From Phycisphaerales bacterium UBA5793 (GTDB taxonomy: Bacteria > Planctomycetota > Phycisphaerae > Phycisphaerales > UBA5793): 64,000 nucleotides of DNA. The notes beneath the pieces are model-generated. The model was not told where the DNA came from, ran no database searches, and saw only the letters and a program-made list of their open reading frames with translations. How positions within the stretch are numbered: the first letter of the stretch is position 1; the number at the start of each line of letters is the position of its first letter. The stretch lies in assembly GCA_002418285.1 (NCBI GenBank), contig DIDT01000018.1, positions 90,309-154,308 on the forward strand, in the 5' to 3' direction. The translations under genes and the position numbers were made by a program. This document shows positions 29,545-56,064 of the stretch, one piece after another.

Positions 29545-30492
29545 ATGTCGAAGATCCTGCGTAATGGCGTTGCATTGGGCATCGCCGCGATGGCTCTGGC
29601 TTCCGTGGCGAATGCTCAGGTGCTCCGCCCCTCGACGCCGCATGCGGCGTTCAACTACATTCCATTTGGAGGAACCGGACAGGTTTGCACCATGCATCAG
29701 GTGTTCGACCGTTCGCTCTGGAGCGCTCCGATGGAGATCTCTGCCCTCGGCTTTTCAGTGTTTGATACAAACAATGGACAGCGGTATGACAGCGACGTCG
29801 CCATTCGTCTGGGCTACACCGAGAAGGTCCCCGGCCAGAACCCGCCGACTGGTCTTGACGGCGTACTTGCGAACAATCCGAGTGGATCGATGAACGAGGT
29901 CTTCAGCGGTCGGGTCTCTGAAGTGCTCGTTGCCGGCGGCACCGAAGCCTTCACATTCGTGATCCGCTTCGACAGGCCGTGGTGCTATGACCCCGCGCAG
30001 GGCAATCTGCTGGTCGAGATCAAGTCGTCCTGGGTCTCCGGCGCTGACCTCGCCGTCGGTCGAACGTCCGGCAGCGCTGAAGCATCTCGCGCGTACAACT
30101 CGACGCGCTTCGGCGACCTAGCCTCACCCACCACCGCCACCCGCATGGACTTCTACGAGGACGGTTGCAGCGGCGGCGGTCCTTCGCTCCGCGTCACGGG
30201 TGAGTGTCCCGGTCGCGTGACCGTCGCGTGGGGCGGCGCAACACCGAATCGTCCCATGGCGATCGTGTACGCGAATAACACTGGCAGCTTCGTCGTCCCC
30301 GGCGGACCTTGCGCCGGAACGCAACTCGGTCTCGGCACCAGCGGGATTCAGGTCGCCTTTCAGGGCGGAACCGGCTCGGGCTCCGGCCAGGTCAACAGCA
30401 ACGTGGGAACCGGTGTGTGCGGGCACTACATCCAGATGGTCGTAGTCTCCGGCAGCCCATGCGAGACGAGCAACGTCGTACAGTTGCCGTAA
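29545..30492 (+). CDS. Secreted protein, tandem family paralog 1: 'QVF' N-domain plus C-terminal 4-Cys module ending SNVVQLP
   Basis: Signal peptide ...ASVANA|Q and RBS GAGGAGG. It shares 'YDPAQGNLLVEI', 'ASRAYNS..FG' and 'ATRMDF' with paralogs 2-3. The C-terminal module is at nt 30175-30489. Confidence 0.85.
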   Translation: MSKILRNGVALGIAAMALASVANAQVLRPSTPHAAFNYIPFGGTGQVCTMHQVFDRSLWSAPMEISALGFSVFDTNNGQRYDSDVAIRLGYTEKVPGQNPPTGLDGVLANNPSGSMNEVFSGRVSEVLVAGGTEAFTFVIRFDRPWCYDPAQGNLLVEIKSSWVSGADLAVGRTSGSAEASRAYNSTRFGDLASPTTATRMDFYEDGCSGGGPSLRVTGECPGRVTVAWGGATPNRPMAIVYANNTGSFVVPGGPCAGTQLGLGTSGIQVAFQGGTGSGSGQVNSNVGTGVCGHYIQMVVVSGSPCETSNVVQLP

Positions 30493-30533
30493 GTTCAATC
30501 CTGCATTGAGAGCAGGAAACTCAGTCTTTCGGA

Positions 30534-30570
30534 GCAACCTCAGGCCGCGCCTGAGGTTGCTTTCCTTTTT
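30534..30570 (+). terminator. Rho-independent terminator after paralog 1
   Basis: GCAACCTCAGG-ccgcg-CCTGAGGTTGC (11-bp perfect stem) followed by TTTCCTTTTT. Confidence 0.75.
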
Positions 30571-30751
30571 GCATGGCATCTCGCGATCCTCAGGCGAGGC
30601 ATTGGCAGGGAAACGACCGTGATGTGCCACCAAGTTCGCGATTACGGCGCGACTCCGTCGGACCAGCATGTAGCATGCACAAGGCGAACGCGGCTGGTTC
30701 GCGCTGAGTGCACGCCCCTGCGATTCGCGTCAATTCCGTGGAGGTTGCATC

Positions 30752-31675
30752 ATGTCCCGCACCAGTCATTTGAGCGTGGCCGTCGCAGTCGCGGCAGCGG
30801 CATTCACGTCGTCGGCTCTCGCGCAGGTCTATCCGAATTTCGCCCATGAGCACTACAACAGCATGCCCTTCTGGACGGACGAAATCACATACCAGCAGGT
30901 CTTCGCCGCAGTGCAGTTTGGCTCTGCTCCCATCGAGATTCACTCAGTGGCCTTTGCGCCCTCGCCAGCCCATAACGGCGAAGAATTCCTGCTTGACCAG
31001 GTGCGAATTCATCTCGGCTACACCGACAAACAACCCGGCGAACTCTCGCCCGATCTCTCCGCCAACCCGCGCGGTTCCATGACTGAAGTCTGCAATGAGT
31101 TCAACTGCGAAGGTGTTATCGAGTCCGGCGGCGGCGACCACTTCTCGCTTCGCTTCGTCTTCACGACGTCGTTCTGCTATGACCCGGCCAACGGCAACCT
31201 GCTCGTCGAGATCCGGGCCGTGAATACGACGCTCATCGGCATTGCAACTTCGTGCTGTACCGGCATGCCGGCGGCATCACGTGCGTGGAATTCGTTCATG
31301 TTCGGCAACGGCGCCGACACCGTCGCGACGCGCATGGAGTTTCTCATCACCTCATGCGGCGGACCGATGCTGACGCTCGACGGCCACTGCCCAGGTCAGA
31401 TCGACGTCGCGTGGAGCAATGCGGCGCCCGGCGAACAGATGGGCATCGTCTATGCCCATTCGACCGGTTCATTCATGGTCCCCGGTGGACCCTGCGCCGG
31501 GACGCGACTGGGCCTCGGCGCCAATCGACTGCAATTGATCCGCACCGTAGACACCGGCTCTGGTCAGGGCGGCATCAGCGGCAACGCCGGAAGCGGCGCC
31601 TGTGGCGGATACCTTCAACTCGTCGTCGCATCCGGCAATCCCTGCACCGCCAGTAACGTGGCTCAGTTGCCCTGA
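30752..31675 (+). CDS. Secreted protein, tandem family paralog 2: 'YQQVF' N-domain plus C-terminal 4-Cys module ending SNVAQLP
   Basis: Signal peptide ...SSALA|Q. It has 'YQQVFAAVQFGSAPIEIHSVAF', 'YDPANGNLLVEI' and 'ASRAWNSFMFG'. The module is at nt 31358-31672. Confidence 0.85.
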   Translation: MSRTSHLSVAVAVAAAAFTSSALAQVYPNFAHEHYNSMPFWTDEITYQQVFAAVQFGSAPIEIHSVAFAPSPAHNGEEFLLDQVRIHLGYTDKQPGELSPDLSANPRGSMTEVCNEFNCEGVIESGGGDHFSLRFVFTTSFCYDPANGNLLVEIRAVNTTLIGIATSCCTGMPAASRAWNSFMFGNGADTVATRMEFLITSCGGPMLTLDGHCPGQIDVAWSNAAPGEQMGIVYAHSTGSFMVPGGPCAGTRLGLGANRLQLIRTVDTGSGQGGISGNAGSGACGGYLQLVVASGNPCTASNVAQLP

Positions 31676-32037
31676 ATAACGCACGCTCCCAGATCACCGA
31701 ACGTGCCGGGGGGTTGCGAACGCAGCGGCCAATCGCCAGTCGCATCGGCAAGAGGCGAGCGGCCGTCTGATGGAGGGCGTGAACAAGTTGCCCCATCGTG
31801 TCCGAACCACGGCGCGGTCATCCCTCGGTGGGTTACCACACCAGCCAGTAGTTCGTCAGTTCAAAGTGGGAAGGATTGCCTGAATCGTCACGGGGAAGCG
31901 ACCCTGATTCCATTTCAAATCGCCGTTCCGTTTCAAAGTGCGAAAGCACGGCGAACTAAAATGGACCCAGCGACACGTTCGGACCCGCGCTGAATCTGCG
32001 GGCGTCATGGCGCGCAGTACCAAACGGAGAGTAAGAA

Positions 32038-32961
32038 ATGTCTCGGATCAACAAAGTGGCAACCGCGGCAGCTGTCGCGGTGGCGGTATTTGCGTCGTCG
32101 GCAGTCGCCCAGCTCTATCCAAACCATCCGCATGGCGGCTGGAACGGCATTCCGTTCTGGACCCCGCCGTGTGGCTATCAGCAGGTCTTCGCCGCCGGAC
32201 AGTTCGGCTCCTCGCCGATCCTCATCCACTCGTTGTCATTCGCGCCGGATTCGTTCTACAACGGCGAAGACTACATCATCAGCAACCTCGTCGTCCAGGT
32301 CGGGTACACCGACAAAGCGCCGGGCGGGCTTTCGGCCGACCTGCCCAGCAACGTGCGAGGCTCATTGACGCTGGTCATGAATTCGGCATCGTTCCATGGA
32401 ACGGTTGACTCGCAGGGGCCCGACCACTTCTCCATGAGACTCCCCTTCACCACTCCGTTCTGCTACGACCCCGCCAATGGCAACCTCCTGGTGCAGATCG
32501 ACCTGAACGGCAGCTCGCTTGGCATCGCCATTTCAACCACATATGGCCTGCCGGACTCCTCGCGCGCGTGGAATTCTTCGATCTTCGGCAACAGCACCGA
32601 CACCGTGGCTGCTCGCATGATGTTCGAGACTACGCCTTGCACCTCCGGCCTGACCCTCACCCTCGGAGGCCGATGCCCTGGCTCAATCAACGTCGCCTGG
32701 AGCAACGCAACGCCGAGTCGACAGATGGGCATCCTCTACGCCCGGGCAACAGGCAGTTTTGCCGTGCCCGGCGGACCATGCGCCGGAACCCGCCTCGGAC
32801 TGGGCTCCAACCAGCTCCAACTCGTGAACACCATCGGCACCGGCAATGGAACTGGCAACGTCAATGGCCAAGCCGGCTCGGGCGCCTGCGGCGGCTATGT
32901 CCAACTCGTCGTCGTCGACGGCAACCCCTGCACGACCAGCAACGTCTTGCCGTTGCCATAG
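32038..32961 (+). CDS. Secreted protein, tandem family paralog 3: 'YQQVF' N-domain plus C-terminal 4-Cys module ending SNVLPLP
   Basis: Signal peptide ...SSAVA|Q. It has 'YQQVFAAGQFGSSPILIHSLSF' and 'YDPANGNLLVQI'. The module is at nt 32644-32958. Confidence 0.85.
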   Translation: MSRINKVATAAAVAVAVFASSAVAQLYPNHPHGGWNGIPFWTPPCGYQQVFAAGQFGSSPILIHSLSFAPDSFYNGEDYIISNLVVQVGYTDKAPGGLSADLPSNVRGSLTLVMNSASFHGTVDSQGPDHFSMRLPFTTPFCYDPANGNLLVQIDLNGSSLGIAISTTYGLPDSSRAWNSSIFGNSTDTVAARMMFETTPCTSGLTLTLGGRCPGSINVAWSNATPSRQMGILYARATGSFAVPGGPCAGTRLGLGSNQLQLVNTIGTGNGTGNVNGQAGSGACGGYVQLVVVDGNPCTTSNVLPLP

Positions 32962-33005
32962 CGGCGGCCGGCAACTGCCGCGCCCTCGGCGGAACTTGAT
33001 CCCTC

Positions 33006-33044
33006 CAGACAACCTCACGCCTTCAGTGGGGTTGTCTGTTGTAT
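33006..33044 (+). terminator. Terminator-like hairpin after paralog 3
   Basis: CAGACAACCTCAC-gccttca-GTGGGGTTGTCTG (13-bp stem with one G-U), then TTGTAT, a weak U-tract. Confidence 0.5.
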
Positions 33045-33204
33045 AGGTCAAGTCACCCCCAAATGAGCATGAGTGGAGGCAATTCATGCGCAAAAAGGGC
33101 AGAACCTGCACACGAGTTTGCGATCTTCTTGTACAATGAAAGAGCAGAGCCCTTGAGAGTGCTCGCCGTACCGCAACCGTCGTTCTCATGAAGGAGGGAA
33201 CCCA

Positions 33205-34113
33205 ATGCGTACAAGCAAGATGATTTGTGGCCTCGCTGCCCTGGCGCTCGTCGGCGGAGGGAGTGTGGCGTGGGGACAGTTCACGAACGACGATCTGGAG
33301 ACCGGCGATTTCACCGGCTGGACCGTGCAGAACACGCCCAACGGCGTCGGCGCTCCGGGGGTTATCGAGCAGTATGACATTGACGGTGGGGGCCCGAAGC
33401 CTTCGAGCTATGCCGCCAAGTTTGCCGTGGGTCAGGCTCAGTTCCAGTCGGGCCAGCAGGAAGGTGTCGAGATGGTCCAGAGCCTCGATCTCGTCGATGG
33501 CGTGGAATATACCGTCAGCTATTCCTGGGCTACCAAGCGCGAGTCGAATTCCGGCAATGTGACTGGTGGCGTCTTCTCCGTCATCGTCGACGGTCAGATC
33601 GTCGGAACGCCCCTGGATTCGGGCGGCATCGGCGGCAGTTACGGCTTTTACAAATATGGTGAGTACTCCGCCACCTTTACCGCGTCGGGCACCGGGCCGC
33701 ACGAGGTGGGTGCACGCATCACCCGACCCTACCAGTCGCCTGGCGACGTGTTCTCCTATGTCGATGACTTCGACATCGATCCGCCAACTGGCGGTGGCGG
33801 CCCCTCGCTGCGTGCGATCGGTGATTGCCCGGGTCGGGTAACCGTCTCCTGGGCCAACGCAACTCCGAGTCGTCCGATGGCGATTGTCTACGCGAACAAC
33901 ACGGGTAGCTTCGTGGTCCCCGGCGGCCCCTGCGCGGGCACCCCCCTTGGACTCGGCACCAGCGGAATCCACATCGCTTACCAGGGTGGCACCGGTGGTG
34001 GTAGCGGTCAGGTTTCCACGAACATCGGAACGGGCGTGTGCGGCCACTACATTCAGATGGTGGTCGTATCCGGCAGCCCGTGTGAGACGAGCAACGTCGT
34101 CCAACTGCCGTAA
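33205..34113 (+). CDS. Secreted protein, tandem family paralog 4: different (jelly-roll/CBM-like 'GDFTGW') N-domain plus the same C-terminal 4-Cys module ending SNVVQLP
   Basis: Signal peptide ...SVAWG|Q and RBS AAGGAGGG. The N-domain is unrelated to paralogs 1-3. The module at nt 33796-34110 is about 86% identical in protein to paralog 1's module. Confidence 0.85.
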   Translation: MRTSKMICGLAALALVGGGSVAWGQFTNDDLETGDFTGWTVQNTPNGVGAPGVIEQYDIDGGGPKPSSYAAKFAVGQAQFQSGQQEGVEMVQSLDLVDGVEYTVSYSWATKRESNSGNVTGGVFSVIVDGQIVGTPLDSGGIGGSYGFYKYGEYSATFTASGTGPHEVGARITRPYQSPGDVFSYVDDFDIDPPTGGGGPSLRAIGDCPGRVTVSWANATPSRPMAIVYANNTGSFVVPGGPCAGTPLGLGTSGIHIAYQGGTGGGSGQVSTNIGTGVCGHYIQMVVVSGSPCETSNVVQLP

Positions 34114-34157
34114 TCGGAACCAACCAGCGCCGTGCGTGCGGCACCTGCGACAAACAA

Positions 34158-34196
34158 CAACCTCATCCCGCGGCGGGATGAGGTTGCGTTTTTTTC
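34158..34196. terminator. Strong bidirectional rho-independent terminator
   Basis: CAACCTCATCCCGC/GCGGGATGAGGTTG (up to 14-bp complementary arms), followed by CGTTTTTTT on the + strand and by TTGTTGTTTG on the - strand. Confidence 0.8.
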
Positions 34197-34243
34197 AGAG
34201 CTTCCCATGCGGTACGTTGCGACCCGCAGGTTGGCGAAGTGAC

Positions 34244-34471
34244 TCACGCCGCTGGGCGGGGGCCGTCATCTTCGAGGCCATCCAATTGCTGCCGGAACGA
34301 ATCCAGCGTGGTGCTGAGTCGATCGATCGTCCGCAGGGCTTCGTCGCCGGGATCCACGCCGTCGGCGGCAGGATGGAGCATGTCTTCGATCAGTCGGAAG
34401 GGGAGTGGCCCAAAGTCGTCCTCGCTGTCAGGGCTGCACGTCTCGGTGAGCCTCAGATTGGGGTAAACCAT
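34244..34471 (-). CDS. Small acidic hypothetical protein (75 aa)
   Basis: AAGGAG lies 9 nt upstream of ATG 34471. It ends 48 nt before the bidirectional terminator. It has no recognisable family, so it could be spurious. Confidence 0.3.
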   Translation of the reverse strand: MVYPNLRLTETCSPDSEDDFGPLPFRLIEDMLHPAADGVDPGDEALRTIDRLSTTLDSFRQQLDGLEDDGPRPAA

Positions 34472-34601
34472 CGCATCGCACTCCTTGAAGTGGTTAATCG
34501 TCTGGATCGAGGTCTCCTCTTCAAGATCGTCAAGTTACGTGGATACCTTGACTTAGGGGTGGAATCAGAGTTTTCTGGACCGGATCGACCTGCAAAGTCG
34601 T

Positions 34602-34626
34602 ACAAAAACCACCCGGAACACTCCGG
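34602..34626 (-). terminator. Terminator-like hairpin after dnaB
   Basis: On the - strand: CCGGAgtgtTCCGG followed by GTGGTTTTTGT, about 40 nt after the dnaB stop. The stem is short. Confidence 0.4.
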
Positions 34627-34663
34627 ATTGGCCATGTCTGATAACCGGAGTTGGTTCAGGCGT

Positions 34664-41985: not shown

Positions 41986-41991
41986 GGAGAA

Positions 41992-42504: not shown

Positions 42505-44490
42505 ATGCAACCGAACCGGAGTTGCTTCATGCGTTTGACGGTCGGCATCGCCGTCCTTTGGACTTTCACCCTGACTCTGGCCGGACCGGTCACGCAGACG
42601 GACTGGTCCGCTGGTGGACAGGTTGACGGTCCGGTGCTGCACTGGAACGGCAGTTTTGCGGATCAGTCTGGTGTAGCGTGGCGGTCAGTCGAGGGGCAGA
42701 TCGCCCTCGCCGGGTCGCAGCGCGGCCAGGCAGTGCGAGTTGTGGTCGATGAAAACGCCGACCTGCCGCGCGGCGCAGCCGCCGGCGACTTCGACGGCGA
42801 TGGCCGCACCGACATCGTCATTGGCGATCCCGTCACCGATCCATTCAATCCGATCGGCGCCATCTACTGGTGGCACGCCGAAGCGAATGGGAGCTGGACC
42901 AGGGGATACGTCTCGCAAACGTACTACGGCATCAACTTCCTCACGACCGCCGACGTCGACGGCGACGGGGACACCGATATCGTCGCCGCCGCCTACTACG
43001 GCGCCATCGATCCTCCACCCCCGCCACCCGAGTATCGCAACGGTCGATACACGTGGTTCGAAAACGTCAACGGCGAGGGGTCTGCATGGGATGAGCACAC
43101 GGTCGGAGAGTTGTATTGGGGTGCGGAATACATCGACGTGGGTGACTTCGACGGCGATGGTGACTTGGATTTCGTCGGGGCGTCCTACCTCACGCGCGGC
43201 GTCTATGAGCAGTCGAATGACATTACCTGGTTTGAGAATCTCGATGGCCAGGGCGACGCATGGGAAGCGCACGGAGTCAGTGCCGTCTACAACAACGGAT
43301 ATGAAGCGCACTTTGTCGACCTCGACGGCGACGATGATCTCGACATCCTCGCCACCCATGCCGATCGAATCTCCTGGTGGGAAAACCGCACGGGAACCGG
43401 CGACGACCTCGTGGAACACGTCATCACGGCTTCGCTGATGAACGTCGGCTATGTCAATGCAGGAGATATCGACAACGACGGCGACCTCGACATCGTTGGC
43501 TCAACCTACAGCACTTCCTCTCTCTTCTGGTGGGAGAATTCCAATGGTCTCGGCACGGCGTGGCTCCAACATGTCATCGGTGCCCATCCCAAGGGCGAAC
43601 AGGTCGAACTCGTCGATATCGAGGGCGATGGTGATCTCGATATCGTGGGTGACCGTCGACCCAGCGGAACGTATGGCGCGTTGACGATCTATACCAATGT
43701 CGATGGAAACGGCTTCACGTGGAGCGGCCGGACGGTGTCGATCGAGTCGAACACCGACTACTCGATCGCGATCGCCGATGCCGACAGCGATGGAAAAGTC
43801 GATGTCCTCGTCGCGAGTGAGGATTACTATCGCGCTCTGGGCAAGCAGGTGTCGTTTTTCAACCTCTCGACCTTTGGCTCAAGCGGCAGCCTCACCAGTT
43901 CGATTCTCGACGGCGGAACGATGCCTGGCTGGGGCGTCATGGCCTGGGATGCCGATACCCACAACGGCACATCACTTGCGGTGGCGATCCGCGCATCTGA
44001 TGACGCGAACGACCTCGGTTCGTTCGTTCAGGTGCCGACCTCCGGCACCGACCTTGCCACGCTGGTAAACAGCAACGCCCGCTACGTGCAGTATCGTCTG
44101 ACGCTCTCCGGCGGATCGGAGGTCTCGCCCGTCATTCGCGAGCTGGGCATCGCTCGAGTGGGCGGGGGCAATGGGTTGATTCTTGCCGGACCCCCGCAGG
44201 CAACGGCCGGAAGGTCGCTTGAGCTGGGCGTCCAGTCGGATCAGATCGGAGCTCGCGTGGTCTTTGCCGGAGCAGTTTCGACCGGGCGCACACCCATTCC
44301 GCCATGCCCCGGGGTGACGGCCGGCTTGGCCTCGCCGATGCGATTGGGTGCTTCGTTCATCAACGCAAGTGGTGAAGCGAGACGATCCGTTCGGATTCCC
44401 CTCGCGGCGAAAGGTCGCATGCTGTATTTCCAGGCGCTCGACGCCTCCGATTGCGTGGTCAGCAACGTGGTCGCTATCCCGGTCGACTGA
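42505..44490 (+). CDS. Secreted FG-GAP/VCBS-repeat (integrin-alpha-like propeller) protein with relaxed C-terminal module
   Basis: Signal peptide present. It has repeated Ca-binding loops (DFDGDGRTDIV, DVDGDGDTDIV, DFDGDGDLDFV, DLDGDDDLDIL, DIDNDGDLDIV, DIEGDGDLDIV, DADSDGKVDVL) and 'W(F/W)EN' strands. The C-terminal module is at nt 44176-44487. Confidence 0.85.
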   Translation: MQPNRSCFMRLTVGIAVLWTFTLTLAGPVTQTDWSAGGQVDGPVLHWNGSFADQSGVAWRSVEGQIALAGSQRGQAVRVVVDENADLPRGAAAGDFDGDGRTDIVIGDPVTDPFNPIGAIYWWHAEANGSWTRGYVSQTYYGINFLTTADVDGDGDTDIVAAAYYGAIDPPPPPPEYRNGRYTWFENVNGEGSAWDEHTVGELYWGAEYIDVGDFDGDGDLDFVGASYLTRGVYEQSNDITWFENLDGQGDAWEAHGVSAVYNNGYEAHFVDLDGDDDLDILATHADRISWWENRTGTGDDLVEHVITASLMNVGYVNAGDIDNDGDLDIVGSTYSTSSLFWWENSNGLGTAWLQHVIGAHPKGEQVELVDIEGDGDLDIVGDRRPSGTYGALTIYTNVDGNGFTWSGRTVSIESNTDYSIAIADADSDGKVDVLVASEDYYRALGKQVSFFNLSTFGSSGSLTSSILDGGTMPGWGVMAWDADTHNGTSLAVAIRASDDANDLGSFVQVPTSGTDLATLVNSNARYVQYRLTLSGGSEVSPVIRELGIARVGGGNGLILAGPPQATAGRSLELGVQSDQIGARVVFAGAVSTGRTPIPPCPGVTAGLASPMRLGASFINASGEARRSVRIPLAAKGRMLYFQALDASDCVVSNVVAIPVD

Positions 44491-44806: not shown

Positions 44807-46582
44807 ATGCGCAAAGTTCACGTTGGAACCGCGGTCCTTGCCGCATGCCTCAGCTCTGCCGCACTCGCTCAGCAATGGCGACCGCTGACCCACCAGTCCA
44901 GCGTTCGGGTCTACGGCTACTTCCTGCTCATGGACGGTCGAGTTCTCGCCAATGAGTGCGAGCAGAGCGGCATCGCAACCACCCGCTGGTGGACCCTTAC
45001 GCCGGACAGTTCCGGCAGCTACCTCAACGGCACCTGGTCGCAGGTGGGCAGCACCGTCTACACGCATCTCTATTTCGCCTCGTCCATTACGCCTGCGGGC
45101 AAGGTTCTCGTCGCAGGCGGCGAATACAGCACCGGTGGTTCCGAGACCAACAAGTGCGAACTCTTCGACCCCATCGCCAACACGTGGTCGCCAGTCACGC
45201 CGCCGAGCGGCTGGAACAACATTGGCGACGCTCCCGCGGCGACGCTGCCCGATGGCCGCATGATCGTCGGCGATATCTTCGGCCGGCGCACCGCACTCTA
45301 CAACCCGGCTACCAACACGTTCTCAGCCGGGCCCAACAAACTCAACTCACGCACCACCGAAGAAACGTGGATCACGTTGCCCGATGGCACAGTGGCAACA
45401 TGGGATTGTTTTGGCCACCCGGGGTCCGAGCGCTATCTGCCTTCCACCAATCAGTGGATTTCCTGCGGCAACACGCCGGTTGATCTCGTCCTTCCCAACT
45501 CATTCGAAACCGGCGCCGGCATCGTGTTGCCCGACGGGCGGATGTTCGCCATCGGCGGAACGCCCCGCACCTGCTACTACCAGTATCCTCAGAACATCAA
45601 CGATCCGGGGACATGGACAGTTGGCCCGACGCCGCCCCTGGTGAATGGGCTTACCGTCGGAGCCGAAGATGCTCCTGCTGCACTGGCTCCCAATGGTCGC
45701 GTGCTCATGCCCCTCGGTCGAGTGTCCGCCGGTGGTGGCGAGTTCTTCGCGCCGACCTACTTCTTCGAGTACAACGGCAACAGCATCGTGCGCATCCCCG
45801 ACGCGCCCAATTCGAGCGGACCGCCATACGTCGGCCGTCTCCTGCTCCTGCCCACGGGCGAGATTCTGTGGACCGCAGGAACCGCGGATGCCTACCTCTA
45901 TACCAATGGCGGCTCGGCCAATCCGGCGTGGAAACCCGCTGTCACCGACGTGCCCGGCAATCTGCAGCGCCAACAGAGCTACACACTTCAGGGAACCCAA
46001 CTCACGGGCGTGTCCAACGGTTGCAGCTACGGTGACGAGTATGACCCGGCAACGAACTACCCGCTCATCCGCCTCGATAACACAAGCACGCGACTGGTGT
46101 ATTACGCCCGCACATTCAATCCCAGCACCCGACAGATCCAGACCGGCAACAGCATTCTCAGCGTTGGCTTCGAACTGGGAGGCAACGTGCCGGACGGTCC
46201 GTACGAACTTCGAGTCATCGCCAACGGCATCTCCTCCGATCCTGTCAATGTCCAGGTCGGCAATGGAGGCGGCATCAACCTGACCGTTACAGGCACCTGC
46301 CCGGGCTCGATCACCGTGCAGTGGTCCAATGCGCAGCCCAGCTCGACCGTTGCGCTGATCTATGCAAGGAACACCGGTTCGTTTGTGATTCCCTTCGGGC
46401 CGTGCCAGGGAACGGTTCTGGGTCTCGGGAACCAGGGCATCCGCTTGGTCAACACATTCGCATCCGATCCCGCAGGTGCTGGAAGTCGCAGTGGCTCCAT
46501 CTTCGCGCGGGCCTGCCACGACTACCTGCAGATGCATGATCTGCCGAACTGCACGTTGAGCAACGTGGCTCAGATCCCGTGA
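44807..46582 (+). CDS. Secreted kelch-type propeller protein (galactose/glyoxal-oxidase-like, with Ig-like domain) plus C-terminal 4-Cys module ending SNVAQIP
   Basis: Signal ...SSAALA|Q. It has kelch-like blades ('GKVLVAGGEY', 'LPDGRMIVG', 'LPDGRMFAIGG', 'APNGRVLMPLG'). 'YPLIRLDNTSTRLVYYART...YELRVIANGISS' resembles the E-set domain of glyoxal oxidases. The module is at nt 46274-46579. Confidence 0.8.
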   Translation: MRKVHVGTAVLAACLSSAALAQQWRPLTHQSSVRVYGYFLLMDGRVLANECEQSGIATTRWWTLTPDSSGSYLNGTWSQVGSTVYTHLYFASSITPAGKVLVAGGEYSTGGSETNKCELFDPIANTWSPVTPPSGWNNIGDAPAATLPDGRMIVGDIFGRRTALYNPATNTFSAGPNKLNSRTTEETWITLPDGTVATWDCFGHPGSERYLPSTNQWISCGNTPVDLVLPNSFETGAGIVLPDGRMFAIGGTPRTCYYQYPQNINDPGTWTVGPTPPLVNGLTVGAEDAPAALAPNGRVLMPLGRVSAGGGEFFAPTYFFEYNGNSIVRIPDAPNSSGPPYVGRLLLLPTGEILWTAGTADAYLYTNGGSANPAWKPAVTDVPGNLQRQQSYTLQGTQLTGVSNGCSYGDEYDPATNYPLIRLDNTSTRLVYYARTFNPSTRQIQTGNSILSVGFELGGNVPDGPYELRVIANGISSDPVNVQVGNGGGINLTVTGTCPGSITVQWSNAQPSSTVALIYARNTGSFVIPFGPCQGTVLGLGNQGIRLVNTFASDPAGAGSRSGSIFARACHDYLQMHDLPNCTLSNVAQIP

Positions 46583-47936: not shown

Positions 47937-48013
47937 CGCGACCTTCAGACGCTCTGTTTCAAGGCCGAATCCCCCTTTCCGAGCCTCCAGCCTCCCAAAT
48001 GGTTGGCGAATTT

Positions 48014-48042: not shown

Positions 48043-48137
48043 TGGGCGGTAATCAGAGCAGGCCATCGCTTGCCGGCATCCCGGCAAGAAGGGAAATGCT
48101 GCCGCAGGCGGAAACAGCCAACCACCGGAGGAGAGAT

Positions 48138-51100
48138 ATGTCATCGTCGCACGGCACGAATCGGGTCACCAGTCACGCGCGTTCATTTCCTGCAGCGATG
48201 CTGCTCTGCGTCGGTCTTGCCGCCGTCTGTACCTCAACACTCTGGGGCGAACCGGACGGATTGCCAGATCGAGTCAACCACTCCACGATGGATGAACTCT
48301 TTGGTGGCGCCGCCATCGAGACTCAGGCCAATGTCTTCACCGGCAGCGCACAGGAGCACGGGGCGCTCACGGCTCTGTCCGGCGGTGGCTTCGTGGCCGT
48401 GTGGGACAGCCGGCGGCAGGAGCACGGCGACTACGCCGTGGTCGCGCAGCGCTTCGATGCGTTCGGGCGAGCCATCGGCGGCGAAGTCCCCATCAACGCT
48501 TTTGCTCGCGGCATGCAGGAGCGCCCCGCCGTTATCGCAAGCGGCGAGTCCATCTGGTTCGTCTGGCAGTCGCATGGTCAGGATGGCAGCGCCGCCAGCA
48601 TCGTCGCCCGTCGATTCGATCACGAACTCAGGAACGCCAGCGCCGAGATTCCGGTCAATCAAACGCAGACTGGCAACCAGATGCTTCCGGCCATCGTCGA
48701 TGACGGAGCCGGTGGCGTTGTCATCGCATGGGTGGATGATTCCACCGGAGCCAGTCGAATCATGAGCCGCACCTTTGACGCGGAAGGTTCACCGATCTGC
48801 GATGAGTCTGCCGTGAGTGGAGATGTGCCCGGAAACAACTCAAATGTATCTATCGGGCGCGCCTCAGATGGCTCCTACCTCGTCGCGTGGGCGCGAACGG
48901 ATGAGCAGGGCAATCCCAACGCCGTGATCGCCCGACGCATCGCGAGGGATGGAACCCTCAGTAGTGATGAACTGATCCTCAACGAAATGGACGGGAGCGA
49001 TCACATCGAACCATCCATCGCGATGACCCGTGATGGCGGTTTCGTCGGCGCCTGGCATACCGCTGCCGATGGCGGGTTCACCGTCGATGTGCGCTTTTTT
49101 GACGCCGATGGATCACCCTTGACCGACCGCATGACCGTCGCAGGGCCGTCAAACGGGTGGAAGAGCGCGGCGACCGTACTCCGAGTTACCGATGATCGCT
49201 ACCTCGTCGTCTACAACAGTGACGGCGCCGGCGGCGACGGGAACGGCTCGGGCGTCATGGGGCAACTCATCGACGCACAGGGAGACATTCTCGCCTCACC
49301 CATGGTCCTCAATGTGAACACAAACGGTCTGCAGGAAATCACTCCCGCAACCGGCGCCAACCGAGTGGTAATCGATGAGGCAGGCCGACTCGCCACCTGC
49401 TGGAATGGCGCTTCACACGAGGGCGACGAGTCTTCCGTCAATCTCACCGTGCGGCTGCCGTTGGAGATGGCCGTTGCTGCGGCCGAGCCGGCTGGCGAGC
49501 GTCTCGCTTACTTGGTGTCGGAAGTCGATGCAAACACCCCCAACCCGCCCATCTGGGATCCCAACCATGTAGAGCTTGAACGCCTCGGCAACAGCGGCGG
49601 TGATGGGCCGGACTTCGGCTTCGAAGGCGTGACGAACACAGGGTGGACACCGCCTGATCCGGAAATGGCCGTCGGGCCCGACCGCATCCTCGCTATCACC
49701 AATGGTGAGATTACCCTCTTTGACAAGTCCGGCAACAACCTCTTCCGCGACGAGATTGAAGACTCATTTGGGTTCTGGGGAGAACTGGGCGCGACGAACT
49801 TCGTCTTCGATCCCGAGTGCGTCTGGGATCCCCATTCCCAGCGTCTCTTCGCCATGGCCTGCGAGCGCAGCAATACCGGCCGTTCGATGTTCCTGCTCGC
49901 CGTCTCAAAGACCAGTTCACCCAACACCCGGACCGATTGGTGGAAGTATCGCATCGACGTGACGTCACTTTCGGGCAATGACATCGACTCGCCGAACATG
50001 GCCGTCGACGCCAACAATGTGCTGCTTACCGCCGACTTCTTCTCACCCGACAAATATCTTCTCTACTTCATCGATAAGAATTCAATTCTCGCTGGCGGCA
50101 CGCCGGTAGCCAGGAGCGAGTTGATCACGGGGGCCAGCCAGCAGTCGATGGGCATTCCCGTCATGCACGACGCCAACGCCCCGGCCCAGTACATCCTCCA
50201 GTCTACCGAACTCACCAACAACAACACGGTGATCTTCCACGCCACGCGCGACCCATTCGGCTCCTACACCCGCGTGACCTACACGCTGACGGTTCCGGCC
50301 TACACCTATCCGAATCAACCGCCGCAGCGCGGCTCAAGCAGTCGTCCGTTCCTCTTCGAACCCCGCTTCTGGAGTTGCGTGGCCATCAACGATTCGCTCT
50401 GGGCCGTGCATCACGTCAACTCCTCCCGCGCACGCGTGCGCTGGTACGAGTTCAACATGCGCGGCTGGCCGACGAGCGGTAACAACCCCGAGATTGCCCA
50501 GTGGGGCGAACTCGACTATGGCGGCACGATCCACACCTTCTTCCCGAGCATCGGTGTCGATTCCCAAGGCAATGCTGCGATCACCTTTGCGCGATCCTCG
50601 CCGGATGAATACATCTCGATGTCGCGGGCAGTGCGCAAATTCAGCGATCCTCCCGGAACATTCCAGCCGCCCCAGTTCGTCAAGGAGAGCACCGCCGCGC
50701 ACACCTCCGGTCGCTGGGGCGATTACAGCGCCACGGTGAATGATCCGGCGACGCTCGGCTCATTCTGGGGGCATCATGAATTCACGCTCAACGGTCAGTG
50801 GCGCACGTGGATCGCCCGCTACGACGTCGGTAATCCGCCGATGATCCTCGTCTCCTCGCGACTCGTGTCGGGTGTGCGCGGAACGTTGGATGTCACCGGC
50901 GCCACGCCCAACGGGCAAGTAGTCTTCTTCTACTCGATTCGTGGGTCGGGCAGCACGTACGTTTCGCAACTTGACGTGACGCTCGATCTCAACGCGCCCG
51001 TCTTCCTCGGCGCACGCCTCGCGGACGAAAACGGCGCGGTGAGCCTCTCCAGGCACATACCTGATGGAACGACCGGTCGAAGAGTCTGGTTGCAGGCCGC

Positions 51101-51146
51101 CGAATTCCAGCGCGCCACCAATCTCGTGGAGACCGTGATCGAGTAG
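48138..51146 (+). CDS. Large secreted protein: seven ~45-aa 'h-V-x-W' repeats (predicted propeller), a second beta-rich domain, and the relaxed C-terminal module
   Basis: ORF 48003..51146, start set at ATG 48138 with GGAGGAGAG RBS. Signal 'AAMLLCVGLAAVCTSTLWG'. The repeats are listed in the findings. The C-terminal module is at nt 50841-51143. Confidence 0.8.
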   Translation: MSSSHGTNRVTSHARSFPAAMLLCVGLAAVCTSTLWGEPDGLPDRVNHSTMDELFGGAAIETQANVFTGSAQEHGALTALSGGGFVAVWDSRRQEHGDYAVVAQRFDAFGRAIGGEVPINAFARGMQERPAVIASGESIWFVWQSHGQDGSAASIVARRFDHELRNASAEIPVNQTQTGNQMLPAIVDDGAGGVVIAWVDDSTGASRIMSRTFDAEGSPICDESAVSGDVPGNNSNVSIGRASDGSYLVAWARTDEQGNPNAVIARRIARDGTLSSDELILNEMDGSDHIEPSIAMTRDGGFVGAWHTAADGGFTVDVRFFDADGSPLTDRMTVAGPSNGWKSAATVLRVTDDRYLVVYNSDGAGGDGNGSGVMGQLIDAQGDILASPMVLNVNTNGLQEITPATGANRVVIDEAGRLATCWNGASHEGDESSVNLTVRLPLEMAVAAAEPAGERLAYLVSEVDANTPNPPIWDPNHVELERLGNSGGDGPDFGFEGVTNTGWTPPDPEMAVGPDRILAITNGEITLFDKSGNNLFRDEIEDSFGFWGELGATNFVFDPECVWDPHSQRLFAMACERSNTGRSMFLLAVSKTSSPNTRTDWWKYRIDVTSLSGNDIDSPNMAVDANNVLLTADFFSPDKYLLYFIDKNSILAGGTPVARSELITGASQQSMGIPVMHDANAPAQYILQSTELTNNNTVIFHATRDPFGSYTRVTYTLTVPAYTYPNQPPQRGSSSRPFLFEPRFWSCVAINDSLWAVHHVNSSRARVRWYEFNMRGWPTSGNNPEIAQWGELDYGGTIHTFFPSIGVDSQGNAAITFARSSPDEYISMSRAVRKFSDPPGTFQPPQFVKESTAAHTSGRWGDYSATVNDPATLGSFWGHHEFTLNGQWRTWIARYDVGNPPMILVSSRLVSGVRGTLDVTGATPNGQVVFFYSIRGSGSTYVSQLDVTLDLNAPVFLGARLADENGAVSLSRHIPDGTTGRRVWLQAAEFQRATNLVETVIE

Positions 51147-51166
51147 GAGGATCCGACGAGTCTCGG

Positions 51167-52327: not shown

Positions 52328-52433
52328 TGGATTGGTCTTGCCTCTGAACGCTGCGGGGTTACGCTAGTCAACCCAGAAGGTGCGAATCGATCGCTCCTGC
52401 TTGATCATAAGTCCTTGAACGGCGAGAAACTCC

Positions 52434-53513
52434 ATGAATGTTGACCTGCTGAAAAGGTTGTGCGAAACCCCCGGAATCCCCGGACGCGAAGAGCGTGTCC
52501 GGGCGCTGATCGAACTCGAGGTGAAGGGCCTGTTTGACGAAGTGCGAACCGATCCGATGGGTTCGCTCATCTGCGTGCGAAAGCCCACGCGCAAGCCCGT
52601 CAAGGGAGCGGCGCCGCTGCGCGTCATGCTCGCCTGCCACATGGACGAAATCGGCTTTTACGTCCGCCACATTGATGACAAAGGATACCTCTGGCTTAAC
52701 CCCGCCGGCGGCTTTGATGCCCGCAACCTTTTCTCTCGCCGCGTACTGGTCTGCAGTGAAGAGAACGACCTTGTCGGCGTCATGAACCCCGGCGGCAAAC
52801 CCATCCACATCTCCTCGCCAGAAGATCGCAAGAAGATTCCCGAGGTGACTGAGTTCTACATCGATCTCGGGATGTCGCCCGACGATGTCAGGAACCAGGT
52901 CCGCATCGGAGACATGGTCGTCATGCACGAACCATTTGCCGAACTTGGCGACACCCTTGTGAGCAAGGCGATGGACAACCGCGTGGCATGCTGGCTGGGC
53001 ATCGAGTCGGTTCGACAGGTAGCAGGCAGGGGCAAAGGCAAAGCCTCGGCCAAGGGTGTTGACCATGCCTGTGAGATCCACTGCGTCTTCACCGTACAGG
53101 AGGAGGTCGGCCTGCGCGGCGCCGTCACCAGCGCCTACACCGTCAAACCTGATGTCGGCATTGGCATCGACACAACCCTCTGCTGCGACACGCCGGGAGT
53201 TCCGGAGAACGATCGCGTGACCAAGCAGGGCGACGGCGTGGCCATCACCGTCATGGATGGCTCAGTCATCTCCACCCACGCGCTCGTCAACCAGTTTGAG
53301 GAGATTGCGAAGAAGCGCAAGATCCCGCATCAGCGGTCCATCCTTGGACGCGGCGGCACCGATACCGCAGCGCTTCAAAAGGCGGGATCAGGAGCCAAGG
53401 CGATTACCATTTCCGTCGGCACGAGGTACATCCACACGGTGACCGAGATGGTCCATCGCGGCGACCTGGAAGCCGCGCGCAACCTGCTGGCTGCCTATCT
53501 CGAAGTCGCCTGA
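52434..53513 (+). CDS. M42-family metallopeptidase (FrvX/glutamyl aminopeptidase-like)
   Basis: It has 'LLKRLCETPGIPGREERVR', 'LACHMDEIGF', 'KAMDNRV', 'FTVQEEVGLRGA' and 'RYIHT'. Confidence 0.85.
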   Translation: MNVDLLKRLCETPGIPGREERVRALIELEVKGLFDEVRTDPMGSLICVRKPTRKPVKGAAPLRVMLACHMDEIGFYVRHIDDKGYLWLNPAGGFDARNLFSRRVLVCSEENDLVGVMNPGGKPIHISSPEDRKKIPEVTEFYIDLGMSPDDVRNQVRIGDMVVMHEPFAELGDTLVSKAMDNRVACWLGIESVRQVAGRGKGKASAKGVDHACEIHCVFTVQEEVGLRGAVTSAYTVKPDVGIGIDTTLCCDTPGVPENDRVTKQGDGVAITVMDGSVISTHALVNQFEEIAKKRKIPHQRSILGRGGTDTAALQKAGSGAKAITISVGTRYIHTVTEMVHRGDLEAARNLLAAYLEVA

Positions 53514-53629
53514 TCACCACCCGCGATCAGGAATCTCGTGATGTGGTGCAGAATAAACCGAGCCAGTGCCAGGTTTTGTGATTGATCGCGACATTCATGG
53601 TGCCTGAACTCCGGGCGCGGAGGTGTGAA

Positions 53630-54382
53630 ATGAACCTGAATCGGTGCTCGATTATGTCCCTGGCGGCGGCGATCACCCTCGTGGGTGGATGCCAGTCTTC
53701 GCAGGTCGATCGTTCCGCGAATATGGAGCCAGAATCAGGTGCGGGTGCGTTGGCCGCCGTGACGCCCGAGCAGGAGCGGGGCGAGGCGAGCCCGGGCAAT
53801 CGCTACGAAGAGCAGCGGGTGCACGAGGCCATGCGCGGTCTCGAGTATGAGACCGGCCGCGTCCGCCTTGACGCCGATCAGGCCACTCTGGTCGTTCCTC
53901 GCCCCGATGTATCGCTGGCGGCTGTCGAACGGCAAACCGGCGTGCAGGAGCTGATGCAGCGCAACGACGTGATCAGCGCCATCGGTGCATTCACGCGCGC
54001 TGTCATTCATGACCCGGCAGATGCAAGATCCTACACCGAACTCGGCCGCGCGCTCATGTTTGAGGGCGAGTCTAAGGATGCTGAGGCGGCGTTTCGAACG
54101 GCACTGGATCTCGATCCTGCGTTCACCGAGGCAGGCTTCCAATTGGGCGCCCTTCTCCAGATGACCGGACGCAACGCCGAGGCCGTCGATCAGTGGTTGC
54201 AGGTCGTCTCGATCGATCCGAATCACGCGCTGGCGCACAGTCGTTTGGCCATCGAGTTGTACTACGCCAGCCGTTATGAGCAAGCCTGGCTCCATGTGCA
54301 CGCGGCGCAGCGGTTGGGTGCGGTTGTTCCGCCCCAGTTCCTGCCGCTGCTTTCGGCACAGATGGCCGAGCCGGCTCGCTAG
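53630..54382 (+). CDS. TPR-repeat lipoprotein
   Basis: Start ATG 53630 with GGAGG RBS and lipobox 'LVGGC'. It has TPR-like repeats ('AIGAFTRAVIHDPADARSYTELGRAL', 'AEAAFRTALDLDPAF', 'AVDQWLQVVSIDPNHALAH'). Confidence 0.75.
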   Translation: MNLNRCSIMSLAAAITLVGGCQSSQVDRSANMEPESGAGALAAVTPEQERGEASPGNRYEEQRVHEAMRGLEYETGRVRLDADQATLVVPRPDVSLAAVERQTGVQELMQRNDVISAIGAFTRAVIHDPADARSYTELGRALMFEGESKDAEAAFRTALDLDPAFTEAGFQLGALLQMTGRNAEAVDQWLQVVSIDPNHALAHSRLAIELYYASRYEQAWLHVHAAQRLGAVVPPQFLPLLSAQMAEPAR

Positions 54383-54432
54383 TTGATGCGTCACCTCGTT
54401 CAGAACCCAGCGAAGGCGGAGGAGAAGATCTC

Positions 54433-56064
54433 ATGAACTCCACTCAAAACAACGCGGTGATCGGATCGCTTAACGGATTGGCGGTATTGCTCGTCTGCGC
54501 TGCCGGCACGCTGGCCGATCCCCCGGTGGTTGGCCCCCAGGTTCGCGTCGATGCGAACGGTGGAACGCAAGCCGCCAACGAGACGTCGTGTGCGTCTGTC
54601 GACGGTGCGCCCGGCGAGATTGTCGCCACAGCCAACGACTGGCGCGACAGCAATCCCAACGAAATCATCCGCATGTCCGTCGCAGTCTCAAACGACTTCG
54701 GTCAGACGTGGACCGACTTCCTGCTTCGCCCGCCGGCTCAAAACCAGTCGACCGTCGAAGGCGATCCGATGACCTGCTATGACCCGCGGACCGGCACCCT
54801 GTGGGTCGGCGCCATCTCCTTTGCGGGCAATGGTGGTCTCTACGTGGCGCGCAAGAACCCGGGACAAAACACCTTTCAACCGGCGGTCATGGCTCGCGCC
54901 ACCAGCAGCGCGGATAAGTGCTGGATGGCGGCTGGTCCGATCCCCGGCAACCCCAACAGCACCCGCGTCTACATCGCCTACAACCAGGGGGTGATCTACT
55001 CCTCGGACATGGGCAACACCTGGAACACGCCCCGCGCTCTTGGCTCCGGTATCGGATTCCTCCCTCGCGTCGGTCCCGAGGGGGAGCTGTACGTCGCCTA
55101 CTGGGACTTCGCCACCGGCGTCATGCTGAGGAGAAGTTTCGACGGCGGTGACACGTTCGATCCCGCCATTCGCATCGCCACCCGCATGGACACCTGGGGC
55201 ACGCAGGATGGCTCGCGGTTCCCCGGCAACTTCCGCGTTCCGCCCATGAACTCTCTCGCCGTCGATCCCAACAACGGCACGCTCTACTGTGTCTTCTTCG
55301 ACACCACCAACATCGTCAACGGTCAGCGCAACGTCGATCTGTACCTCACCCGGTCAACCGACAAAGGATCCACCTGGACGACGCCGCGCGTCATCAACAT
55401 GGACAACAGCCCGCCCGGCGATCAGTTCTTCCCCTGGCTGGAGGTTGATCGCGCCGGCAGAATTCACATGGTCTTCTCTGATTCGCGCAACACCGTACAG
55501 AATGACGGCGTGACCAACGGCATGTTCGACGCCTACTACGCCATGAGCGCTGACGGCGGTGAAACCTGGAGTGAATACCGGCTCACACCCAACTCCTACA
55601 ACTGCAACAATGACGGGCTCAATCGCAGTCAGCAGTTCCTGGGCGACTACAACGGACTCGGCCTCGGTGGCGACTTTGCCTATCCGAACTACATCTCCAC
55701 GCAGAATGGCGACACGGACATGTTCGTCCACACCATCCAGAATCGCAGCCTGACTCTCCAGCCCCCCTCGCCCGGAAACGCGGGTGAAGTGAACAGCTTT
55801 GTCACGACCAATGGGACGCCCGGAACAACCGTTTACTTCGTCTATGGATTGTCCAGCGCGCCGACGGCCGTGCCCGGCTGCCCCGGCCTGTCGCTCTTTG
55901 TTCAGTCGCCGAGCATCGCCGGAACTGCGGTGGCCAATGGCAACGGCGAGGCGACGTTGAATCGCTTCGTGAGCCGTGCCGCGCGCAACCGAAATGTCTT
56001 CCTTCAGGCAGTTGAGCAATCGTCCTGCACGCCCAGTACGGTGGTTCGAACGACCTTCGATTAG
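54433..56064 (+). CDS. Secreted BNR/Asp-box (sialidase-fold propeller) protein with relaxed C-terminal module
   Basis: It has five Asp-boxes (SNDFGQTW, SSDMGNTW, SFDGGDTF, STDKGSTW, SADGGETW) and a signal peptide. The C-terminal module is at nt 55750-56061. Confidence 0.85.
   Translation: MNSTQNNAVIGSLNGLAVLLVCAAGTLADPPVVGPQVRVDANGGTQAANETSCASVDGAPGEIVATANDWRDSNPNEIIRMSVAVSNDFGQTWTDFLLRPPAQNQSTVEGDPMTCYDPRTGTLWVGAISFAGNGGLYVARKNPGQNTFQPAVMARATSSADKCWMAAGPIPGNPNSTRVYIAYNQGVIYSSDMGNTWNTPRALGSGIGFLPRVGPEGELYVAYWDFATGVMLRRSFDGGDTFDPAIRIATRMDTWGTQDGSRFPGNFRVPPMNSLAVDPNNGTLYCVFFDTTNIVNGQRNVDLYLTRSTDKGSTWTTPRVINMDNSPPGDQFFPWLEVDRAGRIHMVFSDSRNTVQNDGVTNGMFDAYYAMSADGGETWSEYRLTPNSYNCNNDGLNRSQQFLGDYNGLGLGGDFAYPNYISTQNGDTDMFVHTIQNRSLTLQPPSPGNAGEVNSFVTTNGTPGTTVYFVYGLSSAPTAVPGCPGLSLFVQSPSIAGTAVANGNGEATLNRFVSRAARNRNVFLQAVEQSSCTPSTVVRTTFD

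Follow-up and report, generated by a model that had tools for sequence, protein, structure and literature searches.

Eight predicted exoproteins encoded in the window, which is the whole 64-kb stretch of DNA that was analyzed, end in one homologous module of approximately 100 amino acids that is probably, as judged from our combined analysis, a new surface-attachment or sorting domain. It defines a large unnamed family with an absolute C-terminal rule, which swaps with PEP-CTERM and dockerins, and three further unnamed tail families fill the same slot. To our knowledge, the attachment and display of the very large exoproteomes of Planctomycetota and other poorly cultured diderms remain largely unknown, and we know of no scaffold for the dockerin-bearing proteins of these phyla. 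Exosortase and rhombosortase were found by phylogenetic profiling, and the module HMM offers a handle for such profiling toward a partner, besides bringing annotation to thousands of 'hypothetical' proteins. If the partner is new machinery, a new protein-sorting system would come into view; otherwise a useful new definition of an anchor or binding domain is still gained.

One homologous module in eight window proteins

The first-pass annotation had reported eight ORFs with signal peptides and a shared C-terminal module. All eight were found where it had placed them, each with the module and each with a signal-peptide-like N-terminus (8/8). Copies with four Cys residues are referred to as strict and the others as relaxed.

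29545..30492, + strand: gene A (ORF); signal peptide, 'QQVF' jelly-roll-like passenger, Gly linker, C-terminal module
30181..30489, + strand: module copy A (HMM envelope), strict, 4 Cys, last codon at the end; E 4e-40 (A2 profile), 1e-37 (external-only profile)
30531..30563, + strand: terminator-like hairpin 3' of gene A, stem arms common with the gene D hairpin
30752..31675, + strand: gene B (ORF, passenger comparison), paralogue of A, same passenger and module
31364..31672, + strand: module copy B, strict; E 2e-38 (A2 profile), 1e-35 (external-only)
32038..32961, + strand: gene C (ORF, passenger comparison), paralogue of A and B, with module
32650..32958, + strand: module copy C, strict; E 2e-39 (A2 profile), 2e-36 (external-only)
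33205..34113, + strand: gene D (ORF), unnamed 'GDFTGW' passenger unrelated to the others, with module
33802..34110, + strand: module copy D (HMM envelope), strict
34158..34186, + strand: terminator-like hairpin 3' of gene D (DNA comparison with the gene A region)
42505..44490, + strand: gene F, FG-GAP propeller passenger (Pfam FG-GAP_3, 3e-36), with module
44173..44481, + strand: module copy F, relaxed, Cys2 and Cys4 only; external-only HMM E 8e-13
44807..46582, + strand: gene E, kelch/galactose-oxidase-like passenger (Pfam Kelch_1, 1.6e-9), with module
46274..46579, + strand: module copy E, strict; E 1.5e-40 (A2 profile), 8e-40 (external-only)
48138..51146, + strand: gene G (ORF), unnamed passenger of ~900 aa with degenerate ~50-aa repeats, with module
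50838..51137, + strand: module copy G, relaxed, 0/4 Cys left; E 3e-16 (A2 profile), 2e-6 (external-only)
54433..56064, + strand: gene H, BNR/sialidase-like propeller passenger (Pfam BNR_2, 1e-10), with module
55744..56055, + strand: module copy H, relaxed, Cys2 and Cys4 only; external-only HMM E 2e-13

The strict copies A-E are 45-86% identical to one another over ~105 aa, and the relaxed copies F, G and H show only ~20% identity to them. An HMM built from the five strict copies recovered F at 1e-5 and H at 0.055 and missed G. A second HMM, built solely from 190 external domain copies and applied to the 931 six-frame ORFs of the window, detected 8/8 copies (A-E at 1e-35 to 1e-40, H at 2e-13, F at 8e-13 and G at 2e-6) and no further copy among these ORFs. 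The relaxed copies thus belong to the same module, as had been claimed (E 2e-13 to 2e-6), and a 'TGATPNG' motif present in external members bridges copy G to the strict form. The consensus pattern proposed from the window agrees with that of the family. The strict form (A-E) does run to the final residue of the protein; in F, G and H, 2 residues separate the module from the stop. Neither Pfam-A (2025) nor NCBIfam r20 has a model that matches the module, and PDB sequences gave no match either; the first-pass annotation, too, had placed it in no named family.

Passengers

The description of a portable, beta-rich module on unrelated Sec-exported passengers was borne out. The kelch (E), FG-GAP (F) and BNR (H) labels were confirmed by Pfam; the sevenfold repeat ascribed to gene G had been seen by eye only and BLAST self-comparison of this protein was negative. 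The start codon of gene G is uncertain, as starting from a TTG at 48003 would lengthen the ORF. Genes A, B and C encode one common passenger with 45-46% identity, and the passengers of D and G matched no Pfam or NCBIfam family. Across the family the passengers are mostly propellers, lectin-like and other binding folds, not enzymes or peptidases, and include members of the choice-of-anchor Q (Choice_anch_Q), HAF and NxxGxxAF families. The 'choice-of-anchor' designation refers to surface proteins using alternative anchors (bioRxiv 10.1101/2023.03.06.531300).

Family size and the C-terminal rule

The exhaustive search yielded at least 3,414 cluster representatives (clusters at 50% identity), from Planctomycetota, Gemmatimonadota and Acidobacteriota-like contigs; members occur in Phycisphaerae and in Acidobacteriota resembling Thermoanaerobaculia, as well as in Gemmatimonadota and one or more low-GC lineages. 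Single genomes carry many paralogues, arranged in gene arrays. Position within the protein was judged for the best 150 of the 3,414 matches, and the following counts rest on 171 retrieved proteins. A terminal copy ending 0-2 aa from the protein end was present in 171/171 and an internal copy only in 0/171. Likewise, ~70 copies in stop-to-stop ORFs from ten or more genomes lay 0-2 codons from the stop, with one weak match at 8. The claim of strict C-terminal location therefore stands for the terminal copy and fails for the additional internal, tandem or N-terminal copies found in 18/171 (about 10%). A signal-peptide-like N-terminus was scored by a crude test in 142/171 members, and 29/171 (about 17%) consist of a signal peptide and the module alone, with no other cargo.

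Fold, cysteines and conservation

The AlphaFold (AF2) model of copy A is a confident 9-strand Ig/FN3-like sandwich (pLDDT 94.9, pTM 0.84), and in the full-length gene A model (pLDDT 89.9, two beta domains) the module remains a separate domain; the confidence for the lone module together with this separateness argues for a real and autonomous domain. The best Foldseek matches in the PDB were monobodies and FN3 domains (probability 0.97-1.0, TM 0.40-0.57, E >= 8e-3, identity <= 17%), which places the modelled structure in the Ig/FN3-like class at the level of fold only; relative to FN3/Ig domains the module adds two strands and a conserved loop-plus-disulfide signature.

Among 198 copies the Cys patterns were CCCC in 184, -C-C in 12, C-CC in one and none in one. 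Since Cys residues are lost in pairs, the sequences imply two disulfides, Cys1-Cys3 and Cys2-Cys4, that would staple the module. This pairing, taken with the signal-peptide-like N-termini, suggests that the module is extracytoplasmic. Conservation peaks in the loops and the last strand, and the distance from Cys4 to the protein end is 8-11 aa (exactly 9 aa in 132/171). The module terminates in a beta-strand (CxTSNVxQ[IL]P) followed by no hydrophobic helix.

Equivalence with known anchors

Two independent passengers, A and H, carry either the module or a recognised anchor in different homologues. Homologues of the A passenger end in this module (9), PEP-CTERM (~32), GC-type dockerin NF041540 (~10) or dockerin (1); NF041540 matches the alternative tails P0302, P0305 and P0321 of these homologues. 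Among 120 orthologues of the H passenger (58-89% identity) 16 carry the module, ~55 dockerin-like tails and ~49 three other tail types, which constitute the further unnamed families; no tail-less orthologue was present among the 120. The proposal of a secretion or attachment tag is supported because the module takes the same slot as PEP-CTERM, GC-type dockerin and dockerin in homologous proteins. Its export half fared less well: the cargo-less forms (29/171) and the tandem or internal copies (extra copies in 18/171) are more easily reconciled with an autonomous binding or docking domain than with a tag for export only.

Comparison with known systems

The T9SS CTD (Por_Secre_tail) is likewise an Ig-like beta-sandwich of ~80-100 aa that closes signal-peptide proteins at their extreme C-terminus; its passengers, too, are unrelated to one another, and genomes encode many paralogues of it. 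The likeness drawn to it in the first-pass annotation did not extend to homology: hhalign against a genuine CTD gave a probability of 0.05%, and neither PF18962 nor TIGR04183 matched. Searches with PF18962, TIGR04183 and TIGR04131 were negative for the 8 window proteins, 115 members and 26 module-only sequences, the last even at E <= 10. The module differs in having 9 strands, two disulfides and tandem, internal and cargo-less copies; a single terminal copy on cargo is not the rule, given the 18/171 proteins with extra copies and 29/171 without cargo. One Gemmatimonadetes contig encodes both the module and a genuine T9SS-CTD protein, so the two are separate entities. We know of no T9SS in Phycisphaerae, where the module is abundant.

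Dockerin type I and GC-type dockerin resemble the module as small C-terminal additions to diverse exoproteins, in the identical slot on the H and A passengers, and non-covalent docking is presumed for all of them. Dockerin is, however, a duplicated Ca-binding helix-loop-helix with a ~22-aa repeat, whereas the module is a beta-sandwich, all-beta in the model, without a PF00404 match; NF041540 gave no match on module proteins. No cohesin-like partner of the module was identified. PEP-CTERM and the module are alternative endings of the A-C passenger family, but PEP-CTERM is a ~25-aa motif with a TM helix and basic tail processed by exosortase, and the module folds as a domain of 100 aa. It lacks a TM segment and ends in a beta-strand, and is not PEP-CTERM-like (TIGR02595/PF07589), as had been noted. 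PPC (PF04151) is a C-terminal beta-sandwich of secreted proteins, sometimes tandem, which is thought to aid secretion and is often removed; the module has no Pfam match, and propellers and lectin-like folds, not peptidases, predominate among its passengers.

Proposed role of the module

The best explanation, which we hold tentatively (probability about 0.45), is that the module is an autonomous extracytoplasmic Ig/FN3-like domain docking Sec-exported passengers non-covalently on the surface. The protein would undergo Sec export and oxidative folding, as the signal-peptide-like N-termini and paired Cys residues suggest, with a short Gly-rich linker joining the module to the passenger C-terminus. 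The module would then dock its passenger to a protein or glycan receptor of the envelope for surface retention or display, a step proposed from the slot equivalence and matching the role presumed for dockerin and GC-type dockerin at the cell surface. The putative binding site, predicted solely from secondary structure and Cys pairing, is the conserved loop IPxGPCAGTxLGL, tied through Cys2-Cys4 to the last strand CxTSNV near the free C-terminus; this arrangement would account for the chain always stopping 8-11 residues past Cys4. Against docking, slot equivalence equally permits a sorting or translocation signal, PEP-CTERM itself being a processed sorting signal. A strict terminal position is also unusual for common binding domains (LysM, SLH and CBMs, for instance) and a hallmark of recognition signals. 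Moreover, the loci examined yielded neither a receptor or partner gene nor a neighbour that is conserved.

In a broader proposition, which we regard as doubtful, the module serves as an address tag for a surface-display or sorting system not yet described, one that has its own receptor, translocon or processing enzyme. Such a system would be common to Phycisphaerae, Thermoanaerobaculia-like Acidobacteriota, Gemmatimonadota and at least one low-GC lineage, parallel to but unrelated to T9SS-CTD/PorU, dockerin-cohesin and PEP-CTERM/exosortase, and the free C-terminus by the disulfide-tied loop would be its recognition element.

It seems unlikely that the module is a generic accessory Ig-like domain (ligand or carbohydrate binding, spacer or stabiliser) without anchoring function, whose terminal place is a by-product of 3' cassette shuffling. 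The closest folds are indeed generic FN3/Ig domains (E >= 8e-3, TM <= 0.57), the full-length gene A model resembles the sugar-binding plus Ig arrangement of GH2 N-termini, binding modules are commonly free-standing and tandem, and the cassette carries its own stop codon and terminator. Yet with internal-only copies in 0/171 and the stop fixed within +/-1 residue, terminal fixity extends across three or more phyla and shuffling alone would not maintain it. Moreover, the slot is common to dedicated anchors, not CBMs, and every H orthologue has a tail.

Unlikely as well, in our assessment, is an export or sorting signal, similar to T9SS CTD or PPC and possibly cleaved after transit, for an outer-membrane translocon or processing enzyme yet to be discovered. 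The absolute terminal copy with its fixed stop and the Ig-like fold shared with T9SS CTDs speak for it. So do the swapping with PEP-CTERM, itself a genuine sorting signal, and one free-standing copy adjoining a gene of Peptidase_C25, the family to which PorU belongs. No such neighbour appeared in 471 kb from the other module loci, and no conserved machinery gene was found at the loci examined. T9SS machinery (PorU/V, SprA, PorKLMN) was found neither in the 64-kb window nor within +/-10 kb of other loci. A link to the T2SS-like operon of the window had been suggested and lost its footing, as no GspE or GspF homologue lay near ~40 other module loci in ~10 genomes. The cargo-less 17% of members, the tandem, internal and N-terminal copies and the lack of sequence relation to T9SS CTD also argue against an export signal, and we know of no secretion system specific to this set of phyla.

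Self-association, by which passengers and free-standing units would assemble into a common surface layer or fibre, is improbable: free-standing copies could serve as filler or cap units, paralogues are many and arrayed, and the passengers are mostly propellers or other binding folds and not enzymes, but the modelled 9-strand sandwich is complete, and no strand is obviously absent from it.

Organization of the 3' cassette

Module copies A and D share 86% aa and ~80% nt identity, which on the 5' side sets in sharply at the GGGPSL linker. The similarity of the DNA begins at the linker and takes in the terminator arms; the hairpin, its stem arms being common to A and D, belongs to the 3' cassette. 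On this comparison of sequences we propose that the module may spread as a cassette consisting of linker, module, stop codon and terminator. The exact gene A protein is also present on JGI contig Ga0119857_1000015.

The C-terminal module in the eight exported proteins

The eight open reading frames (genes A–H) for which the first-pass annotation had claimed a common C-terminal module of ~100 amino acids were all found exactly where it had placed them, each with a signal-peptide-like N-terminus (8/8). In an alignment of the last ~105 residues the strict, four-cysteine copies (A–E) are 45–86% identical to each other and the relaxed copies F, G and H ~20% identical to them; since identity of ~20% could be due to chance, a two-step HMM test was made. 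The HMM of A–E, run against the 931 six-frame ORFs of the window, detected F (1e-5) and H (0.055) and missed G, and the reciprocal HMM recovered gene E at 1e-3. A profile built exclusively from 190 domain copies of proteins outside the window recovered 8/8: the strict copies A–E with E-values between 1e-40 and 1e-35, and the relaxed copies H (2e-13), F (8e-13) and G (2e-6). It recovered no ninth ORF in the window. External members carrying the motif TGATPNG form a bridge between G and the strict form, and the observation of one module in all eight ORFs, relaxed copies included, is therefore confirmed.

Among the passengers, genes A, B and C (29545–32961) share a single unnamed type, jelly-roll-like and triplicated in tandem. 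The repeats noticed in the passenger of G were not confirmed by BLAST self-comparison.

Fold and conserved positions

That the module belongs to no named family was borne out by searches of Pfam-A and NCBIfam r20, which left it unmatched in the eight window proteins and in 115 full-length family members, while 26 module-only sequences gave no family match even at E ≤ 10. The PDB sequence search returned nothing related, only spurious subtilisin matches (E > 0.2), and the literature searched held no account of the module or of the "GC-type dockerin". The module is undescribed in Pfam-A 2025, NCBIfam June 2026, the PDB and the searched literature; it is new and non-homologous, and the kind of element, a C-terminal anchor or sorting domain, is already known.

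The structural check proposed at first pass was run with AlphaFold2 on the 26-sequence alignment, which gave a very confident nine-strand beta-sandwich (pLDDT 94.9, pTM 0.84), and with Foldseek against the PDB, which matched this model to generic FN3/Ig domains only (best E 8e-3, TM 0.40–0.57). The model of full-length A has a pLDDT of 89.9 and shows the module as a distinct domain following the jelly-roll-like passenger. Conservation is highest at the CPG turn, in two loops (GATP and the long IPxGPCAGTxLGL), at the ACG motif, at a single Gln and along the last strand CxTSNV. All four cysteines are present in 184 of 198 copies; Cys1 and Cys3 are jointly lost in 12, and of the remaining two copies one has an unpaired loss and the other lacks all four. 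The joint loss implies predicted disulfides Cys1–Cys3 and Cys2–Cys4, the latter joining the long loop to the last strand, and hence an oxidising, extracytoplasmic location. The module is shown to be a new, autonomous, exported Ig-like domain with predicted disulfides.

Family size, hosts and position in the protein

A word-indexed homologue search yielded 25 relatives only, whereas a profile search run exhaustively over 1.84 billion representatives gave 3,414 matches at E ≤ 1e-3, of which 1,856 reach E ≤ 1e-10; the apparent rarity of the family was rejected as an artefact of sensitivity. The module was found in numerous MAGs from Phycisphaerae and Planctomycetota, where a genome has several loci, in one Gemmatimonadetes MAG, in a contig whose NuoB groups with Thermoanaerobaculia and in one contig at 36% GC. 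The genome scan started from a strict-only alignment, so its coverage is biased to the subtype with the motif TGSFV[VI]PGGP. Arrays of module genes are present in other genomes too, and cluster look-ups of family members returned no informative protein names.

Position was inspected for the best 150 of the 3,414 matches, and in 171/171 retrieved proteins the terminal copy lies 0–2 residues from the C-terminus, with Cys4 8–11 residues from the end (9 in 132/171). Stop-to-stop ORFs of other genomes place ~70 DNA-level copies 0–2 codons from the stop, and one weak match at 8. The rule for the terminal copy is thus absolute; the claim of a strictly C-terminal module holds for that copy and fails for the extra, non-terminal copies in 18/171 proteins, which are in tandem (two or three), internal or placed straight after the signal peptide. 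In 29/171 members (≤150 aa) the protein consists of signal peptide and module, no more. The passengers are otherwise very diverse, mainly beta-propellers (FG-GAP, kelch, SBBP, PD40, PQQ) and other binding folds; beta-helices of the choice-of-anchor Q type also occur, and a small number are proteases.

Exchange of the module with known anchors

The 120 orthologues of the H passenger, a BNR propeller, come from Phycisphaerae, are 58–89% identical and always end in a C-terminal tail of variable type: the module in 16/120, a dockerin-like tail in ~55/120 (PF00404 confirmed in several) and three other unnamed types in the remainder. Homologues of the A–C passenger carry the module in 9 cases, all close orthologues, PEP-CTERM in ~32 (PF07589/TIGR02595), the GC-type dockerin in ~10 (NF041540) and a classical dockerin in 1. 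This variation is the pattern behind the NCBI "choice-of-anchor" family names, given to surface proteins with alternative anchors (bioRxiv 10.1101/2023.03.06.531300). By position, the module is shown to be interchangeable with recognised anchors, and the tail swaps on both passengers place it in the anchor/sorting slot, a proof of position and not of function.

The three other tails, seen among H orthologues P0179–P0291 in the slot corresponding to window positions 55744–56055 of H, gave no Pfam or NCBIfam match and may be additional unnamed anchor modules:

~150 aa, ending ...W(T/R)(V/I)xP (e.g. P0180, P0188)
~160 aa, Cys-rich, CPQPGACC...CPCDxIKK...CP (e.g. P0179, P0185)
~120 aa, QTV...PPYMPSGDT (e.g. 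P0247)

P0301, a distant PEP-CTERM-bearing homologue of A–C, weakly matches NF033554, the model of the flocculation-associated PEP-CTERM protein PepA (E 1.6e-5, below cutoff), which hints at a role of the A–C passenger at the cell surface or in the extracellular matrix.

Possible mode of action, and mobility

We tentatively favour, at a probability of about 0.45, surface retention by non-covalent docking: the module would bind a putative receptor and so keep its passenger at the cell surface, the probable binding site being the conserved loop beside the free C-terminus.

Genes A and D have unrelated passengers, and their modules are 86% identical in protein and ~80% in DNA. The DNA similarity sets in abruptly at the GGGPSL linker, continues to the stop codon and returns downstream in the arms (CAACCTCA...TGAGGTTG) of strong terminator-like hairpins with stems of 13–15 bp:

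30531–30563 (+), terminator-like hairpin after gene A
34158–34186 (+), terminator-like hairpin after gene D

What moves is thus a 3′ cassette that comprises the linker, the module, the stop codon and the terminator.

We consider it unlikely that the module is a sorting signal, a reading kept alive by the absolute terminal rule and by the swap with PEP-CTERM; the cargo-less and tandem forms speak against a pure export tag and favour a binding domain. Of the original proposal of an attachment or secretion tag, the anchor slot is supported and the pure export tag fits less well. About as unlikely as the sorting signal is a generic accessory domain that owes its place in the protein to the shuffling of cassettes, and self-association is improbable.

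The first-pass annotation had drawn an analogy with the C-terminal domain (CTD) of T9SS substrates. The architecture is indeed similar, but no homology is detectable, and we know of no T9SS CTD that is tandem, internal or cargo-less. The Gemmatimonadetes contig encodes the module alongside a genuine Por_Secre_tail protein.

Genomic neighbourhood

The secretion operon to which the module had been tied is real:

13825–24202 (+), T2SS/T4P-like operon: GspE, GspF, three or four pseudopilins, choice-of-anchor Q protein, PilM-like protein

No secretin was found among its ORFs scanned with Pfam or NCBIfam. The tie itself was not upheld: tblastn with GspE and GspF detected no homologue in 471 kb of other module loci (~10 genomes), on which ground the operon was rejected as a conserved partner, and its proximity in the window is not a conserved linkage. 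Within it, 19758–21215 (+) encodes a signal-peptide beta-helix protein with a genuine choice-of-anchor Q domain near its C-terminus (41.7 bits, cutoff 25) and no anchor downstream of it; in the Thermoanaerobaculia-like proteins P0028, P0032, P0034 and P0059 this domain is followed directly by the module.

In a Phycisphaerales MAG the free-standing module protein P0018 (locus L042, 10001–10399, +) adjoins a divergent gene (8178–9842, −) for a 554-aa protein of Peptidase_C25, the family to which the T9SS sortase PorU belongs. This candidate partner, found at a single locus, was dropped as it did not recur near other module loci (471 kb). The called-gene contexts of P0009, P0018, P0028, P0062, P0067 and P0091 have no neighbour in common, and six-frame neighbour clustering gave no partner, the signal being swamped by shadow ORFs and lineage synteny.

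An 893-aa ORF at 25814–28495 (−), without NCBIfam match, carries TM-like segments at its N-terminus and a low-complexity region of great length, rich in Pro, Glu, Gln and Thr; its local AT skew of −0.345 is the window extreme. Directly upstream of H (54433–56064, +) lies a TPR protein gene (53582–54382, +). In ~25 orthologues (~710–718 aa, with TPR Pfam matches) this TPR protein is joined to the N-terminus of the same BNR propeller, and this Rosetta-stone fusion suggests that the TPR gene and H function together.
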